Assembly (NCBI GenBank): GCA_035361425.1
Contig: DAOSCP010000016.1
Span: 4,439-68,438, forward strand
Source: Ignavibacteriales bacterium
GTDB taxonomy: Bacteria; Bacteroidota; Ignavibacteria; Ignavibacteriales; DAOSCP01
Direction: 5' to 3'
DNA length: 64,000 nt
A program made the translations under genes and the position numbers. Below the pieces are notes generated by a model. It was not told the origin of the DNA, made no database searches, and worked only from the letters and a program-made list of their open reading frames with translations. Positions 1-44,687 of the stretch are shown here, one piece after another. Each line of letters begins with the position of its first letter. The first letter of the stretch is position 1.

Positions 1-531
1 TTATTCATATTTAATTTTATTAAGTTTCTTAAATAGGCAAGTAAATGTTTTACATATGTGTAATTAATTTTATCTTTTAGTTTTTCATCTTTTGATGCAG
101 TATTAATGAATTCATCAAATAATGTTTTCAGTTCTGATTTTTCATAGTTATTAAATCTGTTTGCAAGTATTTCTCTAAATTTTTTTGATTTTGTATTATA
201 TGCACTGATATGTTCCATAAATCTTTCATTCTGATTATTATAGAAATTTTCCAATTTATCTTTTGAGCGACCTTTAACTTTTCATCAACATTTTTTATAA
301 AACTATCAACATTTTCGGAACATAAAAGAATATTTGAAAGTCTTGATATCAAACTAGTTCCAATGTTTTCTTCTTTTAGATTAAAATATTGTAGATTTTC
401 AAGTGCTTCTTTTTTGATAAAATTAAATAACTCTTCTTTTATATGGTTAAAATAAATATTTTTATAAAGTTTAGGAAATTTTTGTGATGGTTTTATAGTT
501 TTATTTAATACACTTTCTTTGTATTCCTCAT
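1..531 (-). pseudogene. putative cas11-like small helical subunit of the type III-D-like operon (frameshifted; 3' end runs off the window)
   Basis: The ATG at 531-529 overlaps the csx10 TGA (ATGA). The K/E-rich ORF (..LENLQYFNLKEENIGTSLISRLSNILL.. then ..DKLENFYNNQNERFMEHISAYNTKSKKFREILANRF..YTYVKHLLAYLRNLIKL) is continuous only after a 1-nt shift right after the ATG and another at the T4 run 261-264. The assignment rests on size, composition and position after csx10; there is no diagnostic motif. Confidence 0.3.
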
Positions 532-1528
532 TGGTTTGTATAAAAAAATTTTACTTTACCAAAACCTTCGTTTAATCTTTCTCTTATACCTTTATCTTCC
601 AATTCTTTGTAATTTGCAGGTAATTTATTAAGTAATAAGCAACTACCTGCTTTTATTATAATTTCAGATGGCTTTTTCATTTTCCAGATAGCTATAGAAT
701 TAACAATTGTATCAGTGCGACAAAACATATTTTTTATTGTTATACAGTTTAAATATCTTTCTATCGTATTTTTATCAGTAGAAGATAATCCATTAGCATT
801 GTAAAAAATTGCATCACTGGTAAATGTGCAAATAATATATTCAGCATCATTAATGCTATCAGTTTGAGTTTTTATTTCTTCAACTTCATTATCATTAAGG
901 AATGTAACTTCAATTCGTCCATATTCTGTGTTGTTGGAACGACCTATTCTTATTACATTATTTTTTCAAAAAGCTCACAGAAAATATTTTTGGTTTCATC
1001 GTTCGAAATCGTAACAGGTCTAATAAATTCCTGATTAGCCTATAAAGCTTCATAGTTAAAAATTAATTTATTTTTATTGGGTTTATTTTCTTTTATAGGT
1101 TGGTTAGAATGATGAAAATGGATTTTCGACTCTGGTGAAAATTCATAAATATAACTTTCTTCGTCTTTATGATCAATAAATATATCATTTCTGTTGTATG
1201 ATGTAATTTTATCCTTTAATTGTTGAGTTAATATATCATATGCAATTTTATTATCCTTTTAGCCTTTTATTTTTTGAAATGAAAAAGGTTTAGGAATTGT
1301 TATTAAATATTTATTTTTATTACCAATAACTGTTATATATGCATTGGGAAAATAAACATTTTCAAGATGTTGTAAAGGTAGATTATTTTTAACTAATAAA
1401 TTTGCAAAAACACCATAAAGTGCAGTTGAGTTGATGTAATCTTTTGTATATGTGAGTAAATTACTACATTTTTTCTGTGTAACAATTACTGGGTCAAGAA
1501 GTTTTAGTTTTAAATATAACTTATCCAT
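528..1528 (-). pseudogene. csx10: Csx10-family RAMP (Cas5 group, type III-D), pseudogene
   Basis: Hand translation gives MDKLYLKLKLLDPVIV..TKDYINSTALYGVFANLL..VYFPNAY..IPKPFSFQK..LIFNYEAL*ANQEF..IRIGRSNNTEYGRIEV..KKPSEIIIKAGSCLLL..LEDKGIRERLNEGFGKVKF. This fits the Csx10 pattern: a YEALxxxQxF box, GRSxxxEYG, and a terminal G-x-x-E-R-x-N-E-G-F-G glycine loop. It is broken by TAA 1261-1259, TAG 1042-1040 and a 1-nt frameshift in the T6 run 961-966. Confidence 0.75.
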
Positions 1529-2230
1529 TTAAATTCTCCTCATAATATTTAATTGCATTTGAAACAATATTTTGATTATTTTCATCATACAATTCAATTT
1601 TAATGGTTCCAAAACCTCTGTTTTTGTTTGTGCCTAATTTATTTTTATAAGTACAGGTTAAAGCAAATTCATTAATATAATTAGGGTTGATGTTTAACTC
1701 TCCAATAAAAACATGAGCTTTTTTAAGTAATCTTAAAATCCTTAAAGGTTTATCCTTTGTTATTCGGTATTCTTCTTCCATTGAAGTTTGTTTTCTAATA
1801 GTAGTAAAATAATCCATAGTATAATGGAATGGTATAGCAAATTGATTTTGTTGTAACAGTTTAACAGTTTCATGATAACCTTGAATATAAAAATTACTTA
1901 AGGTTAAATTTCCGCTTTCCCAATTACCTTTATTGCCAATAGTTTCATTGAGATACATTTAAATGTTGGGTTTAAATTATTAGTACTAATAATATTATCT
2001 AATTCTTCAGCTGTTTCTCTTAAAATTCCTCTAATTCTTTTGGCGGGTAAGTAGGGTATTCCATATTCGTCAAAAACAATATCTACATCTACATAAGAAG
2101 TAAAGGATTCGCCAGATCCAGGTAAAGTATCACTAATTTTCCTGAATTCTTCAGCATAATCTAATTTTGATTTGATAGTTGAAGAAATGAATTCTAAATC
2201 TTCAGGTGAGTGGTATTCAACCTCTGCACT
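1521..2230 (-). pseudogene. cas7: Cas7-like RAMP (Csm3 group), frameshifted, with its 5' end fused to the cas10 stub
   Basis: It carries a RAMP N-terminal box (VDVDIVFDEYGIPYLPAKRIRGILRETAEEL), then ..GNLTLSNFY.., and a C-terminal glycine loop (LGTNKNRGFGTIKIEL). A 1-nt frameshift at 1958-1963 joins ORFs 1904-2314 and 1521-1958. The stop overlaps the csx10 start (ATGGATAA). No start codon of its own is recognisable, and the 5' boundary is approximate. Confidence 0.65.
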
Positions 2231-2671
2231 AAATTCTGATCTATCGCAAACCATCGAAAAGCCGTAAGATTGTAAAACAGTATTAGGTATATACATATTT
2301 TTAGATAAGTGCAACTAATAGAAAGTTTTTTGCATTGATTCTTTAAAGTTTTTCTTACTTGTATCAAAGTTTTCATTTATTCCGCCTGCAATTTTAACAC
2401 CTGGATATTTGTATAATGTTTCTAGAGTAAAATTTTGGATTGCTTTGAGAGCATTATCCTTAGTGTCAAAAAAAATAAGGCATTACCACCGCTAATAAAA
2501 TACTCTGGTAGTATCCCATCCAATTTCTTTAAATTATTATTTTCATCAAGAAAATAATTAAAAATGTTTTCGATGATATACGATGCAAGATTTTCTTTTA
2601 ATGAGTTAGAACTAAAAATATAATCCTAGATAGACACAGTATCAAATAATACTGCTACATAGATACCTCGA
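2231..2671 (-). pseudogene. cas10: cas10 remnant (Palm1-like segment only)
   Basis: The minus-strand translation is GIYVAVLFDTVSI*DYIFSSNSLKENLASYIIENIFNYFL..LPEYFISGGNALFF(F)DTKDNALKAIQNF..PGVKIAGGINENF..ESMQKTFY*LHLSKN. From memory this parallels the Csm1/Cas10 Palm1 stretch (FDLSGIQDFIY..LYVGGGHAYFVL..). It has no HD domain, no GGDD Palm2 and no start codon, and it begins 1 nt after the CARF gene stop. It is broken by TAG 2628-2626, a frameshift in the A8 run 2468-2475, and TAG 2317-2315. Confidence 0.45.
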
Positions 2672-4034
2672 TTAAATGTTAAGTAATTTTTTTATTTCTA
2701 ATTTGAAACTTTCTTTATCATCAAATATATTATGATTAAAATTTATGAAATAATTTATATTACTACCAAAATCTTTTTGAATTTCTTGTTCTATTTCTGT
2801 AATTTTTTCTTGTGCAATAAATGATTTAAGTATCACTTTTGCTTCATCCCCAGAAAATTGTTGAGTCCTATGTATAACTTCAGAGAATTTGGATTTTATA
2901 ACTGGTTTTTCATCACAAATTGTACAACTTAAACCAAATATATTAAAGTTGTGCTGTATTATAAAATCTAACTCAAAATTATTATTAGGATTACTTTCTG
3001 AAATAAATTTAATATTTCTATGTAAATTAATTTTGATTCCTTCTTGCTTTAATTTATCTGTTATCTTTTGTAAGTATTCAAATAAGTAATCTTCAAACCA
3101 AAATCCAGTTAGATATTTTAAGTTTTTAAATATCCTTTTTTTCTTATTTTTACTGATACATTTATCTAAATTATTTTCATTGATGAATTTTATATCATCA
3201 GGTAAAAATTTAAAAATTTCAATATGCTTGTCATCCAGTTTTTTTTCATTAAAAATATAGTTATAGAGTTTTTCAGTTTCAACACAGCTATTGTTTTGTG
3301 GTAGTGTAGATTGAATATTATTATTGTTTAGCCCGATATTTATAAAATCAATTAGCAAATCAATAATTTTTTCATCATCGAATTTTACTTTAAAGTAATT
3401 TGTATAATCAAGAAATTCTCTTAATTTTTCTATCTTTTCATAATTATTAGTGCAATCAATTTCATTTTTTTCTAATAATTTTTTTTTGCAAAAGAAAAAA
3501 CTTTTTCTGCAAAATTTTTGTCAACCTCAACATTTTCAAATTGTTGAATATTATAAAGGTGCAGATTGGCAATTTTTTCCAGTGTTATACTATCATTGTG
3601 ATAACTAATACTTTCTTTTTTACTATCATTTATATAGATACAGTTAGTTTTAGCATCATAATAAGAACTTTCAAAATTAATATTATTTTTTTTGCACAGA
3701 TTTTGTAAAGTTTTAAATGTATAAATAATTAAACTTTTTATTCCGCCGGTATAATTTAAGTGAATTGGTTCTGATTTATCAATTTATGTCATTAAATTTT
3801 CTAATTTAACTTCTATATCGTTTGCATACTGGATATTTTTAACTTGAATGATTTCAATATTATAGTTAAAAAAGTTTTGTAGCTTTTCAGCATATTTAAA
3901 TGTGCTCGAATGTGTATCAGAAGTATCACTACAAATAAGATAAATTTTTTTAGTGTTTTGAAATTAGAAATGAAATGAGAAAGGATAATGTAATTAGGGA
4001 GTGGACTTGTACCGATAATTTAAAATAAGTTCAT
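2672..4034 (-). pseudogene. CARF-domain / PD-(D/E)xK nuclease-fold effector, Card1/Can2-like (DUF1887-type), pseudogene
   Basis: The N-terminal half has a CARF-like signature (IIGTSPLPNY, KIYLICSDTS, PIHLNYTGGIKS). The C-terminal half has a restriction-endonuclease-like core (TGFWFEDYLFEYL..NFELDFIIQHN..GLSCT). The start is ATG 4034. It is broken by TAA 4022-4020, a frameshift in T7 3945-3951, TAA 3786-3784 and a frameshift in T9 3479-3487. The last 228 codons (ORF 2672-3358) are intact. Confidence 0.7.
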
Positions 4035-4209
4035 ACTATTACCTCATGGATTTTTAAAAACTCAATTTATTAAAAATAATTTTTAATATCAAGTTAAATT
4101 TATATAATTATATAAAATAACATAAATGCTAATAAATAAAATTTTATTTACATTATGAATTGTATTAAAATTTTCTTATTTTTATAAATAAATTATTTTA
4201 GGAGTTACA

Positions 4210-5532
4210 ATGTTAAAAATATTATCCTTATTACTTTTTAGTATGATTACCTTTTCTCAAAATTCAACTAAATTAACCATTTATAATCAATATGCTTTGG
4301 TTAATGAAAATTTTACAATATCTCTTAAAGATGGTGTTAATGAATATTTTTATTATAACATACCATCTAATTTTAACCTTGATTTTATTTATCTTTCACT
4401 TGATGCAAAAATATTAAATCAATCTATTGTTATACCTCCATTTCAGTTAAACAAAATATTAGAAAATCAAGAAGTTGACTTAATTCATAAGGATGGAAAT
4501 CTTATAAACGGTAAAATTGTCAAGTTCGAAAATAGTGCAGCTGTTTTATCAGATAAAAATAACAATTTAATGATAATTCCTAATATTAATGATTATCAAA
4601 TAAAAACTAATGTAAAATATAACGAAAAACAATTTAAACCTTACATTAAATGGGAAATTGAAGCAAAAAAAGGTGAATATCCAGCTAATTTAACTTATCG
4701 TGTTAATGGTATCAGCTGGAATGCAGATTACATTCTTATCATAAACAAAAATAAAGCCAATATCAAATCATTTTATACCATTAATAATAATACAGATATT
4801 GAATATAATAATATGGATGTAAAATTTGTATCCGGTGAGATTCAAAATGTGTTTAATCAACGTCGTATGACTAGAACTATGTCAAGGTCAAGTATCGAAA
4901 AAAGTGTTTCCGATGATGATGATATGGTTCAAGAAAATTTGAATGAGTATAAAATCTATACTTATAACAAAAAAGTGAATTTACCTTCAAATTCATCTAA
5001 ACAATATGAATACTTTTCTGCAGAAGATATTAATATTCAAAAAATATTGTATTTTGAAACATCACAATATAACGAGTTAAGAAATGAAAAACCATTTATT
5101 CAATATAAAATAAAAAATGATAAATCAAATAAACTTGGTTATGCTTTACCCACTGGAAAATTTATGACTTATGAAAATTTAAATGATGAATTAATCTTTA
5201 CAGGAGAAGATATTATTAAAGATATTCCAATAGGCGATGATATTAATATAAAGATTGGTAAGGCCTTTGATGTTTTAATATCGCAAAATATTATGTCAAA
5301 CAATGCTATTAGTGATAAAATCAGTGATATTGAGACGGCGATAAAAATAAAAAATACAGCAAGTGAAGAAAAATATCTGGAAATAGTTAATAATCTTTAT
5401 AGTAATTATGAAATATTAAAGACAACTGATGAATATGAAAAATTATCATCCAATAAAATAAAATTTTCTTTTAAAATGAAGCCAAATTCCGAAAAAACTA
5501 TTATATTAAAAGTTAGATTTAAAAATTTCTAA
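4210..5532 (+). CDS. DUF4139-family secreted protein (MuiA-like)
   Basis: 440-aa ORF with an RBS (aggag) 7 nt upstream and an N-terminal signal peptide. The pattern TIYNQ.ALV.E..L..G.N resembles DUF4139 proteins as I recall them. Confidence 0.55.
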   Translation: MLKILSLLLFSMITFSQNSTKLTIYNQYALVNENFTISLKDGVNEYFYYNIPSNFNLDFIYLSLDAKILNQSIVIPPFQLNKILENQEVDLIHKDGNLINGKIVKFENSAAVLSDKNNNLMIIPNINDYQIKTNVKYNEKQFKPYIKWEIEAKKGEYPANLTYRVNGISWNADYILIINKNKANIKSFYTINNNTDIEYNNMDVKFVSGEIQNVFNQRRMTRTMSRSSIEKSVSDDDDMVQENLNEYKIYTYNKKVNLPSNSSKQYEYFSAEDINIQKILYFETSQYNELRNEKPFIQYKIKNDKSNKLGYALPTGKFMTYENLNDELIFTGEDIIKDIPIGDDINIKIGKAFDVLISQNIMSNNAISDKISDIETAIKIKNTASEEKYLEIVNNLYSNYEILKTTDEYEKLSSNKIKFSFKMKPNSEKTIILKVRFKNF

Positions 5533-11278: not shown

Positions 11279-11291
11279 ATGTATTGTTATG

Positions 11292-12020
11292 AACAATAAT
11301 GATTATGTATTATATATTAAAGGAAATAAAAAACATACTGATGAATATTATTGAAAAGCATTAATAAAACTGAACAACAAAAGTTTCTAGAAAATTATCC
11401 TCTTGATGAACTTAAACTTGATGTGAATAAAAAATATACTATGGCAGATATCGCTTGTGGATATGGAACATGCACTTGTAATTTGAACAATATATTTAAA
11501 GTTTCTAATTTTATTTGACTTAAACGATGATGCTAGTGAAAATGCGAAAAAATAATACTGATATAGATGCTCAATATTTTGTTGAAAGTTGTTATGATAT
11601 GAAATCTATTAGTGATAACTCGGGTTACCTGGCTTTTTGTTTGCAAACTTTGGCGTGGATAAATCAACCAGATTTGTGCATTAAAGAAATGGTTCGTATT
11701 ATAAAGCCTGGTGGGCATATTTTTATTACAAGTTTGTTTAATCTTGACTATGACTGTGATCTAATTGTAAAAGTTAGAGATTATACAAAAGATAAAGATT
11801 CTTCCATTAATTAAAATACATAATGCGAGTTTACCATAAAATCGCGGTTCGAAAATTTAAGCATTAAAAATTATAATTTGAAAAAATTTGAAATAGGAAT
11901 CGATTTACCTAAACAACTCGAGGATTAGGGACACACACTGTTAAAACAGAAAAAGGAGAACTTTTACAAATATCCGGTGGTTATTTGATGAATTGGGGAT
12001 TGCTTCATATTATCAAATAA
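11292..12020 (+). pseudogene. class I SAM-dependent methyltransferase, heavily disrupted
   Basis: The SAM-binding motif MADIACGYGTC, then FDLNDDASENAKK and RIIKPGGHIFITS, lie in three different frames. There are several stops (e.g. TGA after ..TDEYY, TGA after ..VSNFI) and a shift in an A-run. The tail ..GTHTVKTEKGELLQISGGYLMNWGLLHIIK ends at 12020. Confidence 0.65.
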
Positions 12021-12044
12021 AAGTTCAATAAATAAAATTAAGGA

Positions 12045-12923
12045 ATGAATATGGAATCATCCAGCGATTTATTAAAGAAAATTGAGTTAGTTCAAAAATA
12101 TGAAATTACAGAATATTATGTTTATAGGTATCTTGCAAAAATTACCAAAGATGAAAACAATTCAAAAATTTTAGAAAAAATTGCAAAAGATGAAGAAGCA
12201 CATTCAAGATATTGGAGTATGTTTACTAAAAAGGATATAAAAGCAAATCGAATTGTAGTTTTATTTTATGTATTTATCGCAAGATTCCTTGGGCTTACTT
12301 TTAGTATAAAACTTATGGAAAAAAATGAACAACGAGCAGAAAAATTTTATGAAGAAATAGCAGAAAATATTCCTGAAGCCAAAAAAATTATGCACGAAGA
12401 AGAAGAGCATGAACATGCTTTAATTAAAATGCTGGATGAAGAGAAACTTAAATATGCTGGTTCTATTGTCCTTGGACTAAATGATGCTCTAATTGAATTA
12501 ACAGGTGCATTAGCAGGGTTGACATTTGCTTTACAAAATACTCAAATTATCGCCTTAGCTGGTTTAATTACTGGTATTGCAGCATCTTTTTCTATGGCTG
12601 CATCTAATTATCTTTCGGAAAAAGCAGATGATGAAAATAAAAATTATATCAAATCAGCGGCTTATACTGGTATTGCTTATATTGTTACTGTAATCCTTTT
12701 AATTTTACCGTATCTTTTACTTACAAATCCTTTTATAGCATTACCTATAACAATCTTAACAGCAATTCTAATCATTTTTCTTTTCAATTACTATATATCT
12801 GTTGCCAAAAGTTTATCTTTTAAAGAAAGATTTTTGGAGATGGTTGTTATTAATTTAATAGTGACAGCATTATCTTTCGGTATAGGAATTTTAGCTAAAA
12901 TGGTCTTAGGCGTAGATATTTAA
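12045..12923 (+). CDS. VIT1/CCC1-family iron/manganese transporter with an N-terminal ferritin-like domain
   Basis: The N-terminal region is rubrerythrin/ferritin-like (EITEYYVYRYLA..DEEAHSRYW..EEEHEHAL). The VIT1 signature GLNDALIELTGALAG and C-terminal TM helices follow. The start may instead be ATG 12051. Confidence 0.8.
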   Translation: MNMESSSDLLKKIELVQKYEITEYYVYRYLAKITKDENNSKILEKIAKDEEAHSRYWSMFTKKDIKANRIVVLFYVFIARFLGLTFSIKLMEKNEQRAEKFYEEIAENIPEAKKIMHEEEEHEHALIKMLDEEKLKYAGSIVLGLNDALIELTGALAGLTFALQNTQIIALAGLITGIAASFSMAASNYLSEKADDENKNYIKSAAYTGIAYIVTVILLILPYLLLTNPFIALPITILTAILIIFLFNYYISVAKSLSFKERFLEMVVINLIVTALSFGIGILAKMVLGVDI

Positions 12924-13022
12924 ATAAAAATGTATTAGCAATCATTCGTTTGAAAACATTCTCTATTTTGTTTATTTATAATTATTTTGTTATATTCAAA
13001 AGATTAAATAGGTGTTTTTTGT

Positions 13023-14108
13023 ATGGATTTATTACAAAAATTAGAAGGTATAAAAGATAAATTTGATATTATAAATGAGCAACTTTCTGATCCAAATGTG
13101 ATAAGTGATCAGGATAAATATGTAAAGTTGACAAAATCTCGTAATCAATTAGAGCCGATTGTTAATGCATATTATGAGTATTCCAAATTGAAAAAACATT
13201 TAAGCGAAAATTTGGAAATAGTTGATTCAAATATTGATCCTGAACTTGTTCAGCTTGCAAAGGAAGAAATTCCATTTTTGAAAGAACAAATTGAAAAAAT
13301 GGAAGAAGAAATAAAAATATTATTATTGCCCAAAGATCCTGATGATGACAAAAATGCTATAGTTGAAATTCGTGCTGGCACGGGTGGTGAAGAGGCTGCA
13401 TTATTTGTCGCCGATCTTTTTAGAATGTATAGCAGATATGCTGAAAAAAGAGGCTGGGGTTTAGAAGTTTTAGATATTAATGAAACCGGCGGCTTAGGTG
13501 GAATAAAGGAAGTAGTGTTTTTACTTAAAGGTGAAAATGTATATGGCGATATGAAATTTGAAAGTGGTGTGCATCGTGTGCAAAGAGTGCCAGAGACAGA
13601 AGCTAGTGGTAGAGTTCATACATCTGCTGTTACAGTTGCAGTTCTACCAGAAGTTGACGATGTTGAAGTAAATATTGATCAAAAAGATCTGATAATTGAT
13701 GTTTACCGTGCAGGAGGACACGGCGGCCAGAATGTTAATAAAGTTGAAACGGCTATTCGTATTACTCATATCCCAACAGGGATTGTTGTTACATGTCAGG
13801 ATGAGAGATCGCAGCTTAAAAATCGTATGAAAGCTATGAAAGTTTTAGCAAGTAAACTTTACGATATGGCTCAACGTGAACAGAATAAGGAAATCTCTGA
13901 GCAAAGAAAAAGTATGGTTGGTAGTGGTGATAGAAGTGAAAAGATTAGAACTTACAACTTCCCACAAAATAGAATTACTGATCACAGGATAGGACTTTCT
14001 CTTTATAACTTAACTGACGCTATGGATGGTGAAATTGATGAAATTATTCAACAATTAAAATTAGCTGAAAGAACTGAAAAACTTAAAGAATTTGTCGATA
14101 ATGAATAA
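13023..14108 (+). CDS. prfA: peptide chain release factor 1
   Basis: GGQ motif ([24 protein letters not shown]) and an RF1-type P-x-T tripeptide (RVQRVPETEASGRVHTS). Confidence 0.97.
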   Translation: MDLLQKLEGIKDKFDIINEQLSDPNVISDQDKYVKLTKSRNQLEPIVNAYYEYSKLKKHLSENLEIVDSNIDPELVQLAKEEIPFLKEQIEKMEEEIKILLLPKDPDDDKNAIVEIRAGTGGEEAALFVADLFRMYSRYAEKRGWGLEVLDINETGGLGGIKEVVFLLKGENVYGDMKFESGVHRVQRVPETEASGRVHTSAVTVAVLPEVDDVEVNIDQKDLIIDVYRAGGHGGQNVNKVETAIRITHIPTGIVVTCQDERSQLKNRMKAMKVLASKLYDMAQREQNKEISEQRKSMVGSGDRSEKIRTYNFPQNRITDHRIGLSLYNLTDAMDGEIDEIIQQLKLAERTEKLKEFVDNE

Positions 14109-14116
14109 GGCTATCA

Positions 14117-14614
14117 ATGAGTAAACTAGATATTCTAAAAAATATAAAAATGGTTATTACAGATATTGATGGCGTGCTTACAGATGGAGGCCTTTATTAT
14201 ACTGCTGAAGGCTTGACTTTTAAAAGGTTTTATGTACGCGATGGTATGGGCGTTGTTCTTTTAAGAAAAGCTGGTATTGAAACTGCAATTATTAGTGGTG
14301 ATAATGCTGATTTGATTCAAACTCGTGCAAATAAATTAAAAATTGAATTGTGTTATCTTGGAATTGAAGATAAAACTATTGCACTTAATGAAATTATGCA
14401 ACAAAGAAATTTAAAAAAAGAAGAAATAGCTTTTATTGGGGATGATGTAAATGATTTAAATTTATTACCTTTAGTTGGGTTTAAAGCTGCTCCTGCAGAT
14501 GCCCATAAATCAATTTTAAGTAAAGTTGATTATGTTTGCCAGAATAAAGGCGGATATGGTGCTTTTAGGGAATTAGTTGATTTGATATTGGAAGCTAAAG
14601 GAATTATTTACTAA
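14117..14614 (+). CDS. kdsC: KDO 8-phosphate phosphatase (HAD superfamily, YrbI family)
   Basis: ITDIDGVLTDGGLYY, GDDVNDL and a length of ~165 aa are typical of KdsC. Confidence 0.85.
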   Translation: MSKLDILKNIKMVITDIDGVLTDGGLYYTAEGLTFKRFYVRDGMGVVLLRKAGIETAIISGDNADLIQTRANKLKIELCYLGIEDKTIALNEIMQQRNLKKEEIAFIGDDVNDLNLLPLVGFKAAPADAHKSILSKVDYVCQNKGGYGAFRELVDLILEAKGIIY

Positions 14615-14668
14615 GTCTAAGGAGGATGTTATCGATTATTCCTTACTGTTTAATAATTTTGAAGTGTA

Positions 14669-17600
14669 GTGAAAAGTATAAACAATTTATATAAACTTAC
14701 CACAAAATATTTATTATTTTTTCTTTTTTTTATTTTTGCTACTAATTTGTTTGCTACATATGTCAATTCTTTTGTTGTTTCTTTTCCTGCAGAGCAACAA
14801 AATCCAAATAAATCAAAACAACAAAAACCAAGAACAACCAAACAACCTAAAACTAAAACTCAGGAAATTTCAGAAGATTCACTGAAAAAACTTACATATA
14901 TTAAAGATTCTACTGCAAAACTACAATATTATAAATTTTATCGTGATTATTCGCCATTTATTACCTTTAAGGACCAATTTTTTAACATTCCGCTTACTTA
15001 TAAAAAAAATCCTTATAACAGGGAAATTTCATTAGATAGTACCGGTAAATTTGTTATAATAGAAGATAAAATAGGAGGAACTCTTTACCGTCCAGGTTTA
15101 GTGCTACCAATCGAAGATTACATTAATTACAATTTAGCTTTTAACAATCGTTTATTATGGGAACAATTGGTCCGAAGATATGAAGGTAAATTACTGGTTG
15201 AAGATGAATTGAAAAGTTTTATGAGTACTTTTACTAATATTGATATTCCTTTGCCAAATTTAGGGATTTTATCAATTTTTGGAAGACCAGGTATAAAATT
15301 AAGAATTAACGGAGCTGTAGATATACGAGCAGCTTTTAGAAACGAAGAAATGGGAGGTATTACTAATAACATTTATGGAAAATCACGCAATGAACCAGAT
15401 TTTAAACAACAAGTTCAAATTAATGTTGATGGAACTATCGGTGACAAACTAAAAATAAATGCTGATTGGAATACTGAAAGAACATTTGAATATGAAAATA
15501 GATTAAAAATTAAATATACCGGTTATGAAGACGAAATTGTTCAGAATGTAGAAGCTGGTAACGTTTCAATGGGTGGTTCTGGGCTAGTTTCTGGTTCTGA
15601 GGCGTTATTTGGTATCAAGGCTGATATGAAATTTGGTCCTCTTTCTCTTTCCACAATTGCATCTCAAAAGAAAGGAGAAACAAAAGAAAAATCAATTTCT
15701 GGTGGTGGGCAAGCACGAGATATTATTGTAAAACTTAATGAATATTCTACTAATCACTATTTTATTGATACGATATATGCATCTCAATTGCCAGAATTTA
15801 ATATGTTTAATAAATATTTTTCTAAACCAGTTGGTGAAATAGTTGATCCTTATGTTGTTGTTGAAATTGAAGTTTGGAAATCAACTACAAATTTCCTGAA
15901 TCCACAAAGACGAAAAGCTAACGCATATTATTTTCTACCTCCTAAAGTAGGGAATAATTACGATGAATTTAAATCACAAGCTGATCCTACTAGTTCATCT
16001 GATCCGGAAAAAAGGGGTATAACTGGTTATTTTTTAAAACTTGAGCCAGGTAAAGATTATATAATTCACAGAGAAACTGGCTTTATCTCTTTTAAAACAC
16101 AAATACAAGATAATGAAAAAATTGCTGTTGCTTATACAATTCAAGGTAACGATCCTACAGATCCCCGAGATGATATCCAGTATGGCGAATTTGCAAATGA
16201 TAATCCGGATACTACACTTATCTTAAAACTTATTAAACCAGAAAATTTAACTCCAGCTGATCCAATTGGTTGGAAGTTAATGCTTAAAAATATTTATCCT
16301 ACTAAAACATCAAATGTCAAGGAAGCAGGCTTCGAGTTTGATATTAAATATCAACCTTCCGGGAGCGAACCAGTTAATGAATTAACGGGTAAAGATGGGC
16401 AATCTAAAAAATTATTGGATGTTTTTGGATTGGATAAATATAGTGGTGATAATGAGGGGCCTGATGGTAAATTTGACTTTAAAGTTGGAAAAACTATCAT
16501 TACTCAAACAGGAGAAATTATATTCCCTGTATTAGAGCCTTTTGGTAAAAATTTTCCAAAAGAACTGAATGATACATTACGCTTTGATGAACTTTATGAA
16601 TTGCAAGCATATAGAGCTGCTGAAAAAAATGAGAAAAATAGATTTTTCTTTGCTATTAAAGCAACCGGCGATATATCGTCAACTATTCCGATTGGATTTA
16701 ATGTAGTTGAAAATTCCGTTAAAGTGTTTTTCAATGGGCAAGAATTAGTTCCAGGAAAAGATTACGAGGTTGATTATTACGCTGGGCAATTATATATTAA
16801 AAAACCAGAAGCGTTAGTTCCAGGTGCAGATTTAAAAATAAAATACGAAGAAAATGATTTGGCCGCACTTGCTTCAAAATCACTTGTGGGTATGCGTGGA
16901 ATTTTTGATTTTGATGAAAAGACAAAACTTGGTTTTACTGTGATGAATTATTCTCAACAGACTTTGAGTGATAAAGTAAAAATTGGCGATGAACCTATAA
17001 ACAACACAATGTTTGGTATTGATTTCCGTTGGGGCACTGATATTCCAATTTTAACTAAATACTTAAATAAGGTATTTGACGTTCGGGGAATGTCTTCTCT
17101 TAATGTAACTGCTGAATATGCAAGAATAAATCCGGATGGTAATACAATAAAAAGTACAATCGAAGGCGATAGGAAAAAAAGTATTGCCTATATTGATGAT
17201 TTTGAAGGTGGTAAGAGAACAATCAGTATAGGAATTACATCAACCACATGGAAAGATTTAAGTGTGCCTTATTTTGCTGCTCCTAACAAAATGGAATTAA
17301 TGAAATACAAAGCTAAAACTGTTTGGTTTAATTTAATTCCATCTCCTGTTGATGTAAGAGATATATGGCCAGAAAAAGAAACTGCACGTGAGGATAGAAA
17401 TGTTCCCGTTTTAGATTTGTGGTATATTCCTTATATGAAAGGGTTTTACAATTATACACCTTCCCCAGAGCTACCTAAGAAAAACTGGGGAGGTATTATG
17501 AAATATTTACCATTTCCTGCTAAACTCGAGCAAGAAAATGTCGAATATATTGAGTTTTGGTTCAAACCAATGAATTATCACTACAGAGATACAAATTTTG

Positions 17601-42186: not shown

Positions 42187-42243
42187 TTTACTAGTTGAAT
42201 TTATATTCAGTATTTTATTGAAATTTTCTACCATTATATATTA

Positions 42244-42808
42244 GTTCTTTAAAACTGGTTTTAAAGAACGCAAAAGGTATTTGTGTTTTGTTTAAAGAAC
42301 TCAAAGGCCTTTGTGTTCTGTTTAAAGAACACAAAGGTGGTTTATGTTCTGTTTAAAGAACGCAAATTAAATAATATTTATTAAAGCAAAATTTATTAAA
42401 AAAAATTAGTTATTGAGTTCATTCTGGTTTATACATAATTAAGTATTGTTTTTTAAAGAATTGTTTTAAAAACACAAAAATTTATCATAATTTTTCAAAA
42501 AGCCAATTATTTATTGCTCTTTAATCCATAATTTAAAGTATAAATAACTTCTTCTTATTATAATGCATTTCGGATTGTATTATTCGTTTTATAAATTTAT
42601 AGTATAGATATTACTCCTTACTATTTTAGAAAATTCAATAAAATCTATATTAAAGTTAGGATAAGATAATGGGAATTATGTTCTATTTAAAGAACACAAT
42701 AAACTTAGTGTTCTTTAAAAAGCCAAATTAAGAACAAAAAAAATTGCAACATAATAAAAATTTATTATATTGTTTTGTGTTCTTAAAATGGTTATTTAAA
42801 GAACATAA
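42244..42808. repeat. left array of degenerate palindromic repeats (half-sites TGTTCT / AGAACA, spacing 6 or 16 bp)
   Basis: N16 copies start at 42244 and 42778. N6 copies start at 42284, 42314 and 42345. A 61-bp composite module (N6 copy, 12-nt gap, N16 copy) spans 42676-42736. Degenerate traces lie around 42445-42480. Confidence 0.85.
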
Positions 42809-42895
42809 AATATTGTTAGATAAATATGTGATAATATTGAATTATAACAATTAAAATATTATTATAACTTTATTGTAATTATATACGGTGCAATT

Positions 42896-44004
42896 ATGAA
42901 TGTAAAACCTTTTATCCCACATGATTTGAATAAAAGTAGATTGGCAACAATTATTCCCTATTATAATAGAAGCCAATAAATCTTTAGCAAGATACGATGC
43001 CTTTTTGCAAAATCTTATAAATCCTGAGTTATTAATAGCACCTTTATTAACGAGATAAGCAGTATATTCAAGTAGAATAGAAGGAACTCAGGTAACAGTT
43101 GAAGATATTATGCTGCATGAAGGTGGAGCTTATGTAAGGGAGAAACAGCTCGAATACAATGCTGATATTAATGAAACAGTAAATTAAAAAAAAAGCCTTA
43201 TTGTATGGTGCTGAAATGGTAACCATTAGAGAATTATCATTAACACTTATAAAAGAATTACAAAGAATGCTGTTAAGCGATGTAAGAGGAAGTAAAGTTT
43301 TAGTAGGAGAATTCAGAAAAAGGTAGGTGTGGATTGGAAATGCTGGAACACCTATTGAAAAAGCAAGATTTATTCCACCTGATTCAGTTATTGTTCGTGA
43401 ACATCTTGAAAAATTTGAAAAGTTCATAAAAGCAGAATATAAAGATACTCTTGTGCAACTTGCTATTATGCACGCACAATTTGAAATTATACATCCATTT
43501 GAAGACGATAACGGTAGAGTTGGAAGATTGCTAATTCCATTATTTTTGAAGTGGAAAAAAATCTTACATTCGCCAAGCTTTTATCTAAGTGAGTATCTTG
43601 AAGAAAATCGTTCAGAATATTATGATAAGTTGTTAGCTGTTTCTGCAAAAAATGATTGGAATGGCTGGATTAAATATATGCTGTAAGCCATAATTATGCA
43701 AGCTAGCACTAATACTTATAAAGCTAAACAAATTATCGAACTTTATAATAGATCCAAAACGGAATTTTGGGAAATTACAAGATCCCAATATGCTGTTCCT
43801 ATACTTGATGCATTTTTAAAAAGCCTGTAATGAAAGGACCAGAGCTCTTTGAGAGTATAAAAAATTACATCAAAAGGGAATTTTTCATCTATTATTAAAA
43901 ATCTTGTTGATAATAAAATAATTACAATTGTTGAAAAGGGGAAAGGTAGATTTCCTACTATTTACAGATATGATAAACTTTATAATTTAGTTTCATCTCT
44001 TTAA
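42896..44004 (+). pseudogene. Fic/DOC-family protein with a C-terminal winged-helix-like tail, heavily disrupted
   Basis: MNVKPFIPHDL | IKVDWQQLFPIIIEANKSLARYDAFL..LLTR*AVYSSRIEGTQ..NETVN* | ALLYGAEMV..GEFRKR*VWIGNAG..HPFEDDNGRVGRLLIPLFL..WIKYML*AII..LDAF | KKPVMKG.. | NFSSIIKNLVDNKIITIVEKGKGRF. Stops are at 43056-58 (TAA), 43185-87 (TAA), 43324-26 (TAG) and 43684-86 (TAA), with at least 4 frameshifts, one of them in the A9 run 43186-43194. Confidence 0.8.
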
Positions 44005-44009
44005 TAAAG

Positions 44010-44068
44010 CCTTGTGGGAAGTTATTATTAGTTTTACTATAAAATAACTTAGCAAAACTTCCCACAGG
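44010..44068 (+). terminator. long-stem hairpin immediately after the Fic pseudogene (possible terminator)
   Basis: CCTTGTGGGAAGTT..(32-nt loop)..AACTTCCCACAGG: a 13-bp stem with one bulge, followed by gtgcatttt. Confidence 0.45.
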
Positions 44069-44198
44069 TGCATTTTGATATTTTGTAATATGATAATTTT
44101 AAATAATTTTTTAAGTGAAAAATTTAATTATAAATTTCTTATCATTTTATTTTTTTATCATTGAATCTTTGCAAATTATTGTCAAGTAGGGTAAAAAA

Positions 44199-44506
44199 TG
44201 TTCTTTAAAGTTGAGTTTAAAGAATATAACCTAGTTTATGTTCTTTTTAAAGAACACAAATTCAATAATGTTCTTTAAAACACGATTTAAAGAACAAAAT
44301 AGGCTTTTAAGTTAATTAAAAGAACTCAAAATCAAAGTTTAGTTTATGTTCTTTTTAAAGAACACAAAGGCAGCTTATGTTCTCTTTAAAGAACGCAAAT
44401 TATTTAGCGTTCTTTAAATCTCGATTTAAAGAACAAAATAAAGTATTATGTTCTATTTGAGGAACACAAATTACATAGTGTTCCTTGAAAAACGATTATT
44501 AGAACA
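44199..44506. repeat. right array of the same palindromic repeat family
   Basis: 61-bp composite modules span 44236-44296, 44375-44435 and 44446-44506. Extra copies start at 44199 (N16), ~44301 (degenerate) and 44345 (N6). They have the same orientation as the left-array module. Confidence 0.85.
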
Positions 44507-44687
44507 TTATAAGTTATTTTGAGTAATTATTAATTGGTTGCAAATAGTGATTAATAAATATAAAAAATTACGATATTTTATCATTCATTATTTTATAAGA
44601 GAATTTAATTAAATACAATATTCTTAAAGCTGCTTTTTGGCTAAGTCTTTAAAAATTAGTATATTTAAATGCTAAATTGGAGTTAAT

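Follow-up and report, generated by a model that had tools for sequence, protein, structure and literature searches.

The effector complex of the type III-Dv CRISPR-Cas system from Synechocystis sp. PCC 6803 is composed of Cas10, a Cas7-Cas5-Cas11 fusion, Cas7-2x, Csx19 and an insertion-containing Cas7 (Cas7-insertion), and has been characterized structurally (PDB 8S9T-8S9X; PMC11026444). Type III-D systems are regarded as stages on the way to type III-E, whose effector is a single protein (PMC13294483). TbrCan2 of Thermoanaerobacter brockii has been described as a type III-D ancillary nuclease; it is a single-strand DNase/RNase with the clade 1 motif E-ExD-SxTTS-K, activated by cyclic tetra-adenylate (cA4), and the nuclease is switched on by the CARF domain (PMC10783487). 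Here we analyse the minus strand of positions 1-4034 in a 64-kb window (the term denotes the whole stretch of DNA under analysis, at its full length) from an uncultured Ignavibacteriales bacterium, the host being given by source names such as HOJ38399.1. This segment is, with little residual doubt, the promoter-proximal half of an 8.3-kb dead type III-D (III-Dv-like) CRISPR-Cas effector operon with the gene order can2, cas10 (truncated), cas7, csx10-cas11 fusion, cas7-2x, csx19 and cas7-insertion. An earlier sequence-only reading of the window had proposed a type III-D-like interference operon that is far advanced in its decay and headed by a CARF effector. This proposal is supported by profile hidden Markov models (HMMs), by matches to solved structures, by intact relatives that share the gene order and by independent assemblies in which the lesions are identical. 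All seven genes are broken by a total of more than 30 lesions, yet the whole operon is still recognisable.

Positions 1-4034 lack a long open reading frame (ORF) on both strands. The DNA is AT-rich, with 24% GC in positions 1-4000 versus approximately 30% in the intact ORFs of the window, and a scan for promoters and terminators was uninformative in this background. The minus strand was read with the frame switched wherever one open frame hands over to the next, resulting in five continuous translations (A-E) in which stops were masked for model searches. The profile-HMM search of these frame-corrected translations, which the sequence-only reading had suggested as a check, provided PADLOC E-values from 5e-56 to 3e-17, far beyond chance. 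Translation A (4034-2672) matches the model CARF4--CARF_PDDEXK over residues 3-437 (E=5.4e-56), translation B (2670-2315) the Cas10 models (E=2.6e-17, covering only profile positions 2-110 of 370-462), translation C Cas7_IIId (1.3e-30) and translation D Cas5_IIId (4.7e-30); translation E, the small helical segment, has no PADLOC match. Scans with Pfam and NCBIfam were weak, as RAMPs alone scored above threshold (3e-9, translation C) and TIGR02674 Csx10 remained under its 177-bit cut-off (2.7e-11, 43 bits, translation D). It was the PADLOC models and the searches against PDB that decided the matter. The can2 translation is collinear with TbrCan2 (PDB 8Q3Y) over the full length (3-436 against 8-424, E=8.6e-32), and a family profile of csx10-cas11 matches residues 248-773 of the Cas7-Cas5-Cas11 subunit (PDB 8S9T_A, E=1.8e-32).

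Intact relatives display the same gene order. L007 carries cas10 (495 amino acids, aa), cas7 (223 aa), csx10 (524 aa), a 465-aa RAMP gene, csx19 (197 aa) and a 738-aa RAMP gene, followed by card1, cas6, cas2, RT-cas1 (RT, reverse transcriptase) and a 37-nt repeat array; its Cas10, Cas7-2x and Cas7-insertion proteins match chains C, D and E of the III-Dv complex. A much closer intact relative, L019 (25% GC), was found via a Can2 search and encodes can2, cas10 (491 aa), cas7 (217 aa), csx10-cas11 (514 aa) and cas7-2x. The order is likewise intact in eight GTDB genomes from diverse phyla, with a Can2-like gene directly upstream of cas10 in three of the eight. Relative to L019, the pseudogene translations show 43-66% identity for Can2, 55-60% for Cas7 and 40-65% across all pieces of the csx10-cas11 pseudogene, which corresponds to a single ORF in L019. 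The cas10 remnant is 57-73% identical to the L007 and L019 Cas10 queries over residues 2-180 (tblastn).

The region was retrieved from many assemblies through the neighbouring intact gene at 4210-5532. Six assemblies, which stem from different samples and pipelines (among them ENA MEGAHIT, JGI and two NCBI metagenome-assembled genomes), carry the same sequence at positions 1-4300 (100% identity), and these six differ from one another by at most 9 positions over 8.7 kb. A seventh assembly, L010 (GCA_020049655.1), represents a strain with about 0.4% divergence. It has 13 of the 16 lesions of the window in common with the others, a count that leaves the cas7 frameshift at 1958-1963 unscored; it reads CAG in place of TAG at 2317, lacks the deletion at 280 and has a 1-nt deletion of its own at window position 48. 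Multiple disabling lesions are consequently reproduced in independent data sets, and the turnover of lesions between strains continues at these three sites. The inter-strain changes in the L010 comparison amount to 18 non-synonymous and 4 synonymous ones in the pseudogenes versus 14 and 17 in the flanking intact genes (Fisher p=0.01, from a small sample). The cas region thus looks to evolve without purifying selection, its constraint being relaxed relative to the neighbours.

The lesions in the window sum up to six in-frame stops, eight frameshifts, one lost codon and one large deletion of about 1 kb (Table 1). With these 16 and further ones beyond the window start, the intact reading frames of a functional III-D system are not present. 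All six stops listed in the sequence-only reading were found at exactly those minus-strand coordinates. Of its seven frameshifts, five were placed correctly, as homology to the intact relatives switches frame at 3945-3951, 3479-3487, 2468-2475, 1958-1963 and 961-966; the other two are real but had been misplaced (see below). Three lesions were absent from that reading, namely the 1-nt deletion after the cas10 start, the lost Gly codon and the deletion of approximately 0.98 kb.

Table 1. Features of the decayed III-D operon and its surroundings; positions refer to the window unless L001 is given, an assembly of the same region that reaches past the window start (window position 1 = L001 4525).
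Feature	Position	Strand	Remarks
can2 pseudogene (CARF + PD-(D/E)xK nuclease, Card1/DUF1887 family)	2672..4034	-	2 in-frame TAA, 2 frameshifts
In-frame TAA, codon 5 of can2	4020..4022	-	Ile or Leu in relatives
Frameshift, A7 run (coding strand), can2	3945..3951	-	homology switches frame
In-frame TAA, can2	3784..3786	-	Gln in L019
Frameshift, A9 run (coding strand), can2	3479..3487	-	homology switches frame
cas10 remnant	2138..2659	-	residues ~1-178 of ~490-aa HD-less Cas10; conserved GGNALFF kept
cas10 start codon and 1-nt deletion (~2656)	2655..2659	-	ATGGTA in L019, ATGTA here; tblastn/comparison with L019
In-frame TAG at invariant Gln (SIQ motif), cas10	2626..2628	-	Q in 10/10 relatives
Lost codon, invariant Gly of ENLGAS, cas10	between 2587 and 2586	-	alignment with relatives
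Frameshift, T8 run, cas10	2468..2475	-	relatives: LFFFD or LFLFD
In-frame TAG, cas10, polymorphic	2315..2317	-	CAG in L010, Gln in L019
Deletion junction, ~0.98 kb lost	2135..2143 (near 2138/2137)	-	cas10 residue ~178 joined in frame to cas7 residue ~10 (FRK/ISD)
cas7 (Csm3-like RAMP) pseudogene	1521..2137	-	N-terminus lost, one frameshift ~1958-1963
csx10(cas5)-cas11 fusion pseudogene	1..1528, extending ~6 nt past window start	-	2 in-frame stops, 3 frameshifts
In-frame TAA, csx10	1259..1261	-	position confirmed
In-frame TAG, csx10	1040..1042	-	variable column (S, D, A, E or M across the relatives)
Frameshift, A6 run, csx10	961..966	-	homology switches frame
Frameshift, T7 run between Cas5 and Cas11 domains	542..548	-	GFGKVKFF/IQTNEEY here vs GFGKVKFLIQGRDKY in L019 single ORF
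1-nt deletion, Cas11 domain	280..281	-	base retained in L010, which like L019 reads NVDEQVKGRSKDK
AT-rich spacer, can2 to divergent gene at 4210	4035..4209		no repeats, no cas genes
cas7-2x pseudogene	L001 4528-3094 (beyond window start)		spread over three frames
csx19 pseudogene	L001 3017-2556 (beyond window start)		one in-frame stop
cas7-insertion pseudogene	L001 2363-258 (beyond window start)		several frames and stops
5S rRNA gene	L001 10-126 (~4.4 kb before window start)		Rfam 94 bits

The large deletion affects cas10, whose remnant was additionally aligned with 9 relatives. At the deletion junction the alignment to Cas10 passes directly into that to Cas7 without a change of frame; the relatives continue here with HIDGN...GGDD. 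The second palm, which bears the GGDD cyclase motif in L007, L011-L016 and L019, is missing here. The “stub” described in the sequence-only reading goes back to this deletion, which removed the GGDD palm and joined cas10 to cas7. The remnant also lacks an in-frame start codon, as L019 begins MVAVLFDT and the corresponding (Y)VAVLFDT is one frame off the ATG. The retained GGNALFF is a regular motif of this Cas10 family, conserved in all relatives, and is no decayed GGDD. A CAG origin had been suggested for two of the TAG codons. This holds for the one at 2628-2626, and is not borne out at 1042-1040 in csx10, where S, D, A, E or M is found in the relatives. Direct support for a CAG origin comes from a site that had not been named, TAG 2317-2315, as the plus strand at 2317 is A here and G in L010.

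The can2 translation retains the N-terminal CARF and C-terminal PD-(D/E)xK layout and is collinear with characterized Can2/Card1 members. Within the nuclease motif, E (WFEDY), ELD (ExD) and K (IKSK) are kept, and the SxTTS position reads SCTIC, compared to SATTA in L019, the closest intact relative. It should be noted that the Pfam Card1 models are below significance on the copy in the window and significant on its homologues.

The ATGGATAA overlap at 1528-1521 is intact. The sequence-only reading had listed it among preserved coupling overlaps together with ATGA at 531-528; the latter is no gene junction, because the homologous Cas11 domain is fused to Csx10 and the frame changes in the T7 run at 542-548. 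The small helical protein, previously taken for a separate cas11 gene with a frameshift just after ATG 531, is therefore the C-terminal Cas11 domain of a protein that is fused in every relative. Similarly, the frameshift assigned to T4 at 261-264 resides at 280/281, where L010 and L019 read through. The homology of translation E emerges only when several sequences are aligned together and in the comparison with L019, the closer relative; BLASTP against the C-terminus of L007 Csx10 gave no match (E=0.41). Of the 150 best Csx10 relatives from an exhaustive HMMER search, nearly all span 480-545 aa, and their C-termini lie about 170-190 residues beyond the end of the query segment; homologues in the first protein search measured 438-527 aa. 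The family is large (333 representatives) and covered by existing models and structures. No intact protein with more than 50% identity to the tested Csx10 segment was found among 1.84 billion cluster representatives. A word-indexed protein search with the corrected Csx10 missed L019 csx10-cas11, which was reached via the neighbouring Can2, so the lack of close matches in that search is no proof of absence. In addition, a 4-sequence profile scan of genome contigs returned relatives at 25-31% identity only and did not recover the source species, and a metagenome-contig scan with L019 Cas10 gave no match.

The operon extends 4.3 kb past the window start, and cas7-2x, csx19 and cas7-insertion are all broken there by at least five frame changes and about 12 stops. 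Further cas7 genes, which the sequence-only reading had recommended looking for on this side, are thus present, and every one of the multiple Cas7 paralogues, including Cas7-2x and the insertion-containing Cas7, is interrupted; an array was not found. The csx19 assignment is based on a precomputed PF27799 match on a called ORF and on tblastn E-values down to 1e-17 against seven relatives. Every contig carrying the region ends at the 5S rRNA gene, which directly abuts the end of the dead cas operon. These shared contig ends were considered as a CRISPR array and rejected, as the break lies at the repeat of a ribosomal operon. Neither cas6, cas1, cas2 nor a CRISPR array was detected in the 64-kb window and the 4.4 kb past its start, the rest of the genome being outside the search; the earlier statement that none of these lies between 4035 and 4209 is thereby confirmed and widened. 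As a separate observation, one 35-nt stretch sets L006 (GCA_035449785.1) apart from the other assemblies: at ~4366-4400 (L001 4453-4487; window -71 to -37), where the cas7-2x pseudogene starts, it has 8 substitutions and 1 indel. The pattern resembles a short tract of recombination or a patch of local hypervariability.

By analogy to homologous systems, the ancestral CRISPR RNA-loaded complex of Cas7-family subunits, Csx10-Cas11, Csx19 and Cas10 would have bound complementary RNA (PMC11026444, PMC10783487). The GGDD palm of Cas10 would then have produced cA4, and binding of cA4 to the CARF domain of Can2 would have switched on the PD-(D/E)xK nuclease to degrade nucleic acids. As judged from sequence, the effector module is non-functional now, since the palm is deleted, every gene bears nonsense or frameshift mutations, and no cas6, adaptation genes or array are adjacent.

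Three alternatives to a fully dead operon were weighed. It appears very improbable that the locus is mostly dead and surviving fragments have been co-opted and kept by selection. The candidates are a 228-aa Can2 nuclease ORF (2672-3358), the Csx19 ORF and the in-frame Cas10N-Cas7 junction. The first is the leading one: it retains the catalytic E, ExD and K and is gene-called in many assemblies. Any of the three might conceivably act stand-alone, for instance as an unregulated nuclease or decoy, a notion to which we likewise assign a very low probability. That the locus remains undeleted despite heavy decay would also fit selection on some part of it. However, this ORF shows 4 non-synonymous and 1 synonymous changes between strains, its SxTTS substrate motif is degraded to SCTIC, and it lacks the CARF domain, the activator of the nuclease in TbrCan2 (PMC10783487). 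The weaker candidates suffer from a stop within the Csx19 frame and from a stop and frameshifts upstream of the Cas10N-Cas7 stretch.

An intact type III-D system whose stops and frameshifts arose as errors of sequencing or assembly is extremely improbable. In its favour, the source is a metagenome-assembled genome and five of the eight frameshifts fall in A/T homopolymers of at least 6 nt. Still, the six independent assemblies agree and the divergent seventh has most of the lesions too, six lesions are base substitutions to stop codons, and the ~1-kb deletion takes out the cyclase palm. Moreover, 57 A/T runs of at least 7 nt are in frame inside intact ORFs of the same window, including one of 2204 aa, and the 18:4 ratio of non-synonymous to synonymous changes points to relaxed constraint. 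Expression by recoding (stop-codon reassignment, readthrough or programmed frameshifting) has a next to negligible probability, as nothing specific speaks for it except the frameshifts in slippery homopolymers, whereas the standard code accounts for the ends of 38 neighbouring intact ORFs (29 in TAA, 6 in TGA and 3 in TAG), no fewer than 14 separate events of this kind would be required, a deleted palm cannot be restored by recoding, and one frameshift and one stop are missing from the sister strain.

Based on the identical assemblies, the error-free homopolymers, the ordinary stop codons of the neighbouring ORFs, the lesions shared with L010 and the relaxed selection, the decay is genuine, with lesions that are fixed in the population, a few being polymorphic, and is still proceeding. 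Three points weigh against the picture of a dead type III-D operon as drawn here: all assemblies are short-read metagenomes; an array or a second cas locus may be located elsewhere in the genome; and the cA4/Can2 mechanism is carried over to this lineage from its homologues.

The sequence-only reading had considered the inactivation as fairly recent. In favour of this, the pseudogenes keep a coding-type GC gradient by codon position (0.33/0.24/0.16), akin to intact AT-rich neighbours such as 4210-5532, and some lesions are polymorphic. Conversely, 13 of the 16 lesions are shared by strains 0.4% apart, so that most lesions are older than the strain split, and all seven genes are broken. Approximately one in nine inter-strain differences alters a lesion state. 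A rough extrapolation from the shared lesions would put the neutral divergence accumulated after inactivation at about 3%, several times that between the strains, and a recent origin is for that reason only partly supported.

The locus is a genuine but ordinary genomic fossil and does not reveal a new mechanism. Its main value lies in annotation and in how CRISPR immunity is lost: automated typing could report a partial type III-D system, and the locus should be recorded as seven pseudogenes. The loss in this environmentally widespread Ignavibacteriales population occurred by slow mutational erosion, not by clean deletion, and the lesions that are polymorphic between strains provide a small natural time series of decay.

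Two further decayed accessory genes were noted in the window. A Fic/DOC-family pseudogene at ~42897-43990 on the plus strand (within 42240-44520; motif HPFEDDNGRVGR) has several in-frame stops and at least one frameshift, and a ~14-nt palindrome (TGTTCTTTAAAGAACA) occurs in clusters on either side of it, with copies 30-71 nt apart. The tandem repeats at 42.2-44.5 kb were considered as a degenerate array and rejected, as they are these short palindromes at irregular spacing. The other, at 11279-12044, is a stop-broken remnant of a class I S-adenosylmethionine (SAM)-dependent methyltransferase (PF08241, precomputed calls), which brings the decayed accessory genes in 64 kb to three. Together, the Fic and methyltransferase pseudogenes hint at generally relaxed selection on accessory genes in this AT-rich lineage.

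Among the relatives, L007 encodes cas2 and an RT-Cas1 fusion (754 aa) at 11960-15344, beside at least two copies of the 37-nt repeat (ATTTAGAATCACTTCCTTGAATTGAAAGGACAGAGAC); some members of the III-D family therefore have reverse-transcriptase-linked adaptation. In L017 (3802-5997, an Acidaminococcaceae metagenome-assembled genome) and L018 (9383-11413, Holdemanella biformis), cas7 and csx10-cas11 form a single fusion (731 and 676 aa, respectively), as in Synechocystis III-Dv. Their Cas10 proteins display a GGNAL-type motif and no GGDD in a simple motif scan, and may represent a cyclase-inactive sub-branch. In L016, the Zhuqueibacterota relative, several families of 30-73-nt direct repeats with spacings of ~100-120 nt, unlike a regular CRISPR array, occupy positions 1997-3260 upstream of the cas genes.

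In comparison to the described systems, the can2 product resembles the Can2/Card1 nucleases, TbrCan2 in particular (PDB 8Q3Y; PMC10783487), by its CARF motifs GTSPLPNY and HLNYTGG and the nuclease E, ExD and K, and can2 is directly upstream of cas10 in L019, L011, L015 and L016; it differs from TbrCan2 by its stops and frameshifts and by SCTIC in the place of the substrate-binding SxTTS. A Csx10-type Cas5 and multiple Cas7 paralogues are shared with types III-D1 and III-D2, whereas III-D2 has Cas7x3 and Cas7-5, produces SAM-AMP and has CorA as its partner (PMC13294483) and the partner here is Can2, along with III-Dv-type Cas7 fusions. The subunit set and order are those of Synechocystis III-Dv, Csx19 included, and Cas10 of the intact relatives carries GGDD. 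Unlike in that system, the first Cas7 is separate (~220 aa) and the fusion is limited to Cas5 and Cas11, Cas10 is smaller (~490 aa), and the copy in the window is a pseudogene cluster that lacks the cyclase palm, cas6 and an array. The family is thus less fused and stands between III-D1 and III-Dv. CRISPR-Cas loci that are degenerate or orphaned are a familiar class in which nonsense mutations, frameshifts and deletions have inactivated the cas genes and neither an array nor an adaptation module is adjacent. Nothing essential distinguishes the present locus from these; what is unusual is that a whole seven-gene operon has not been deleted and can be recognised after more than 30 lesions.

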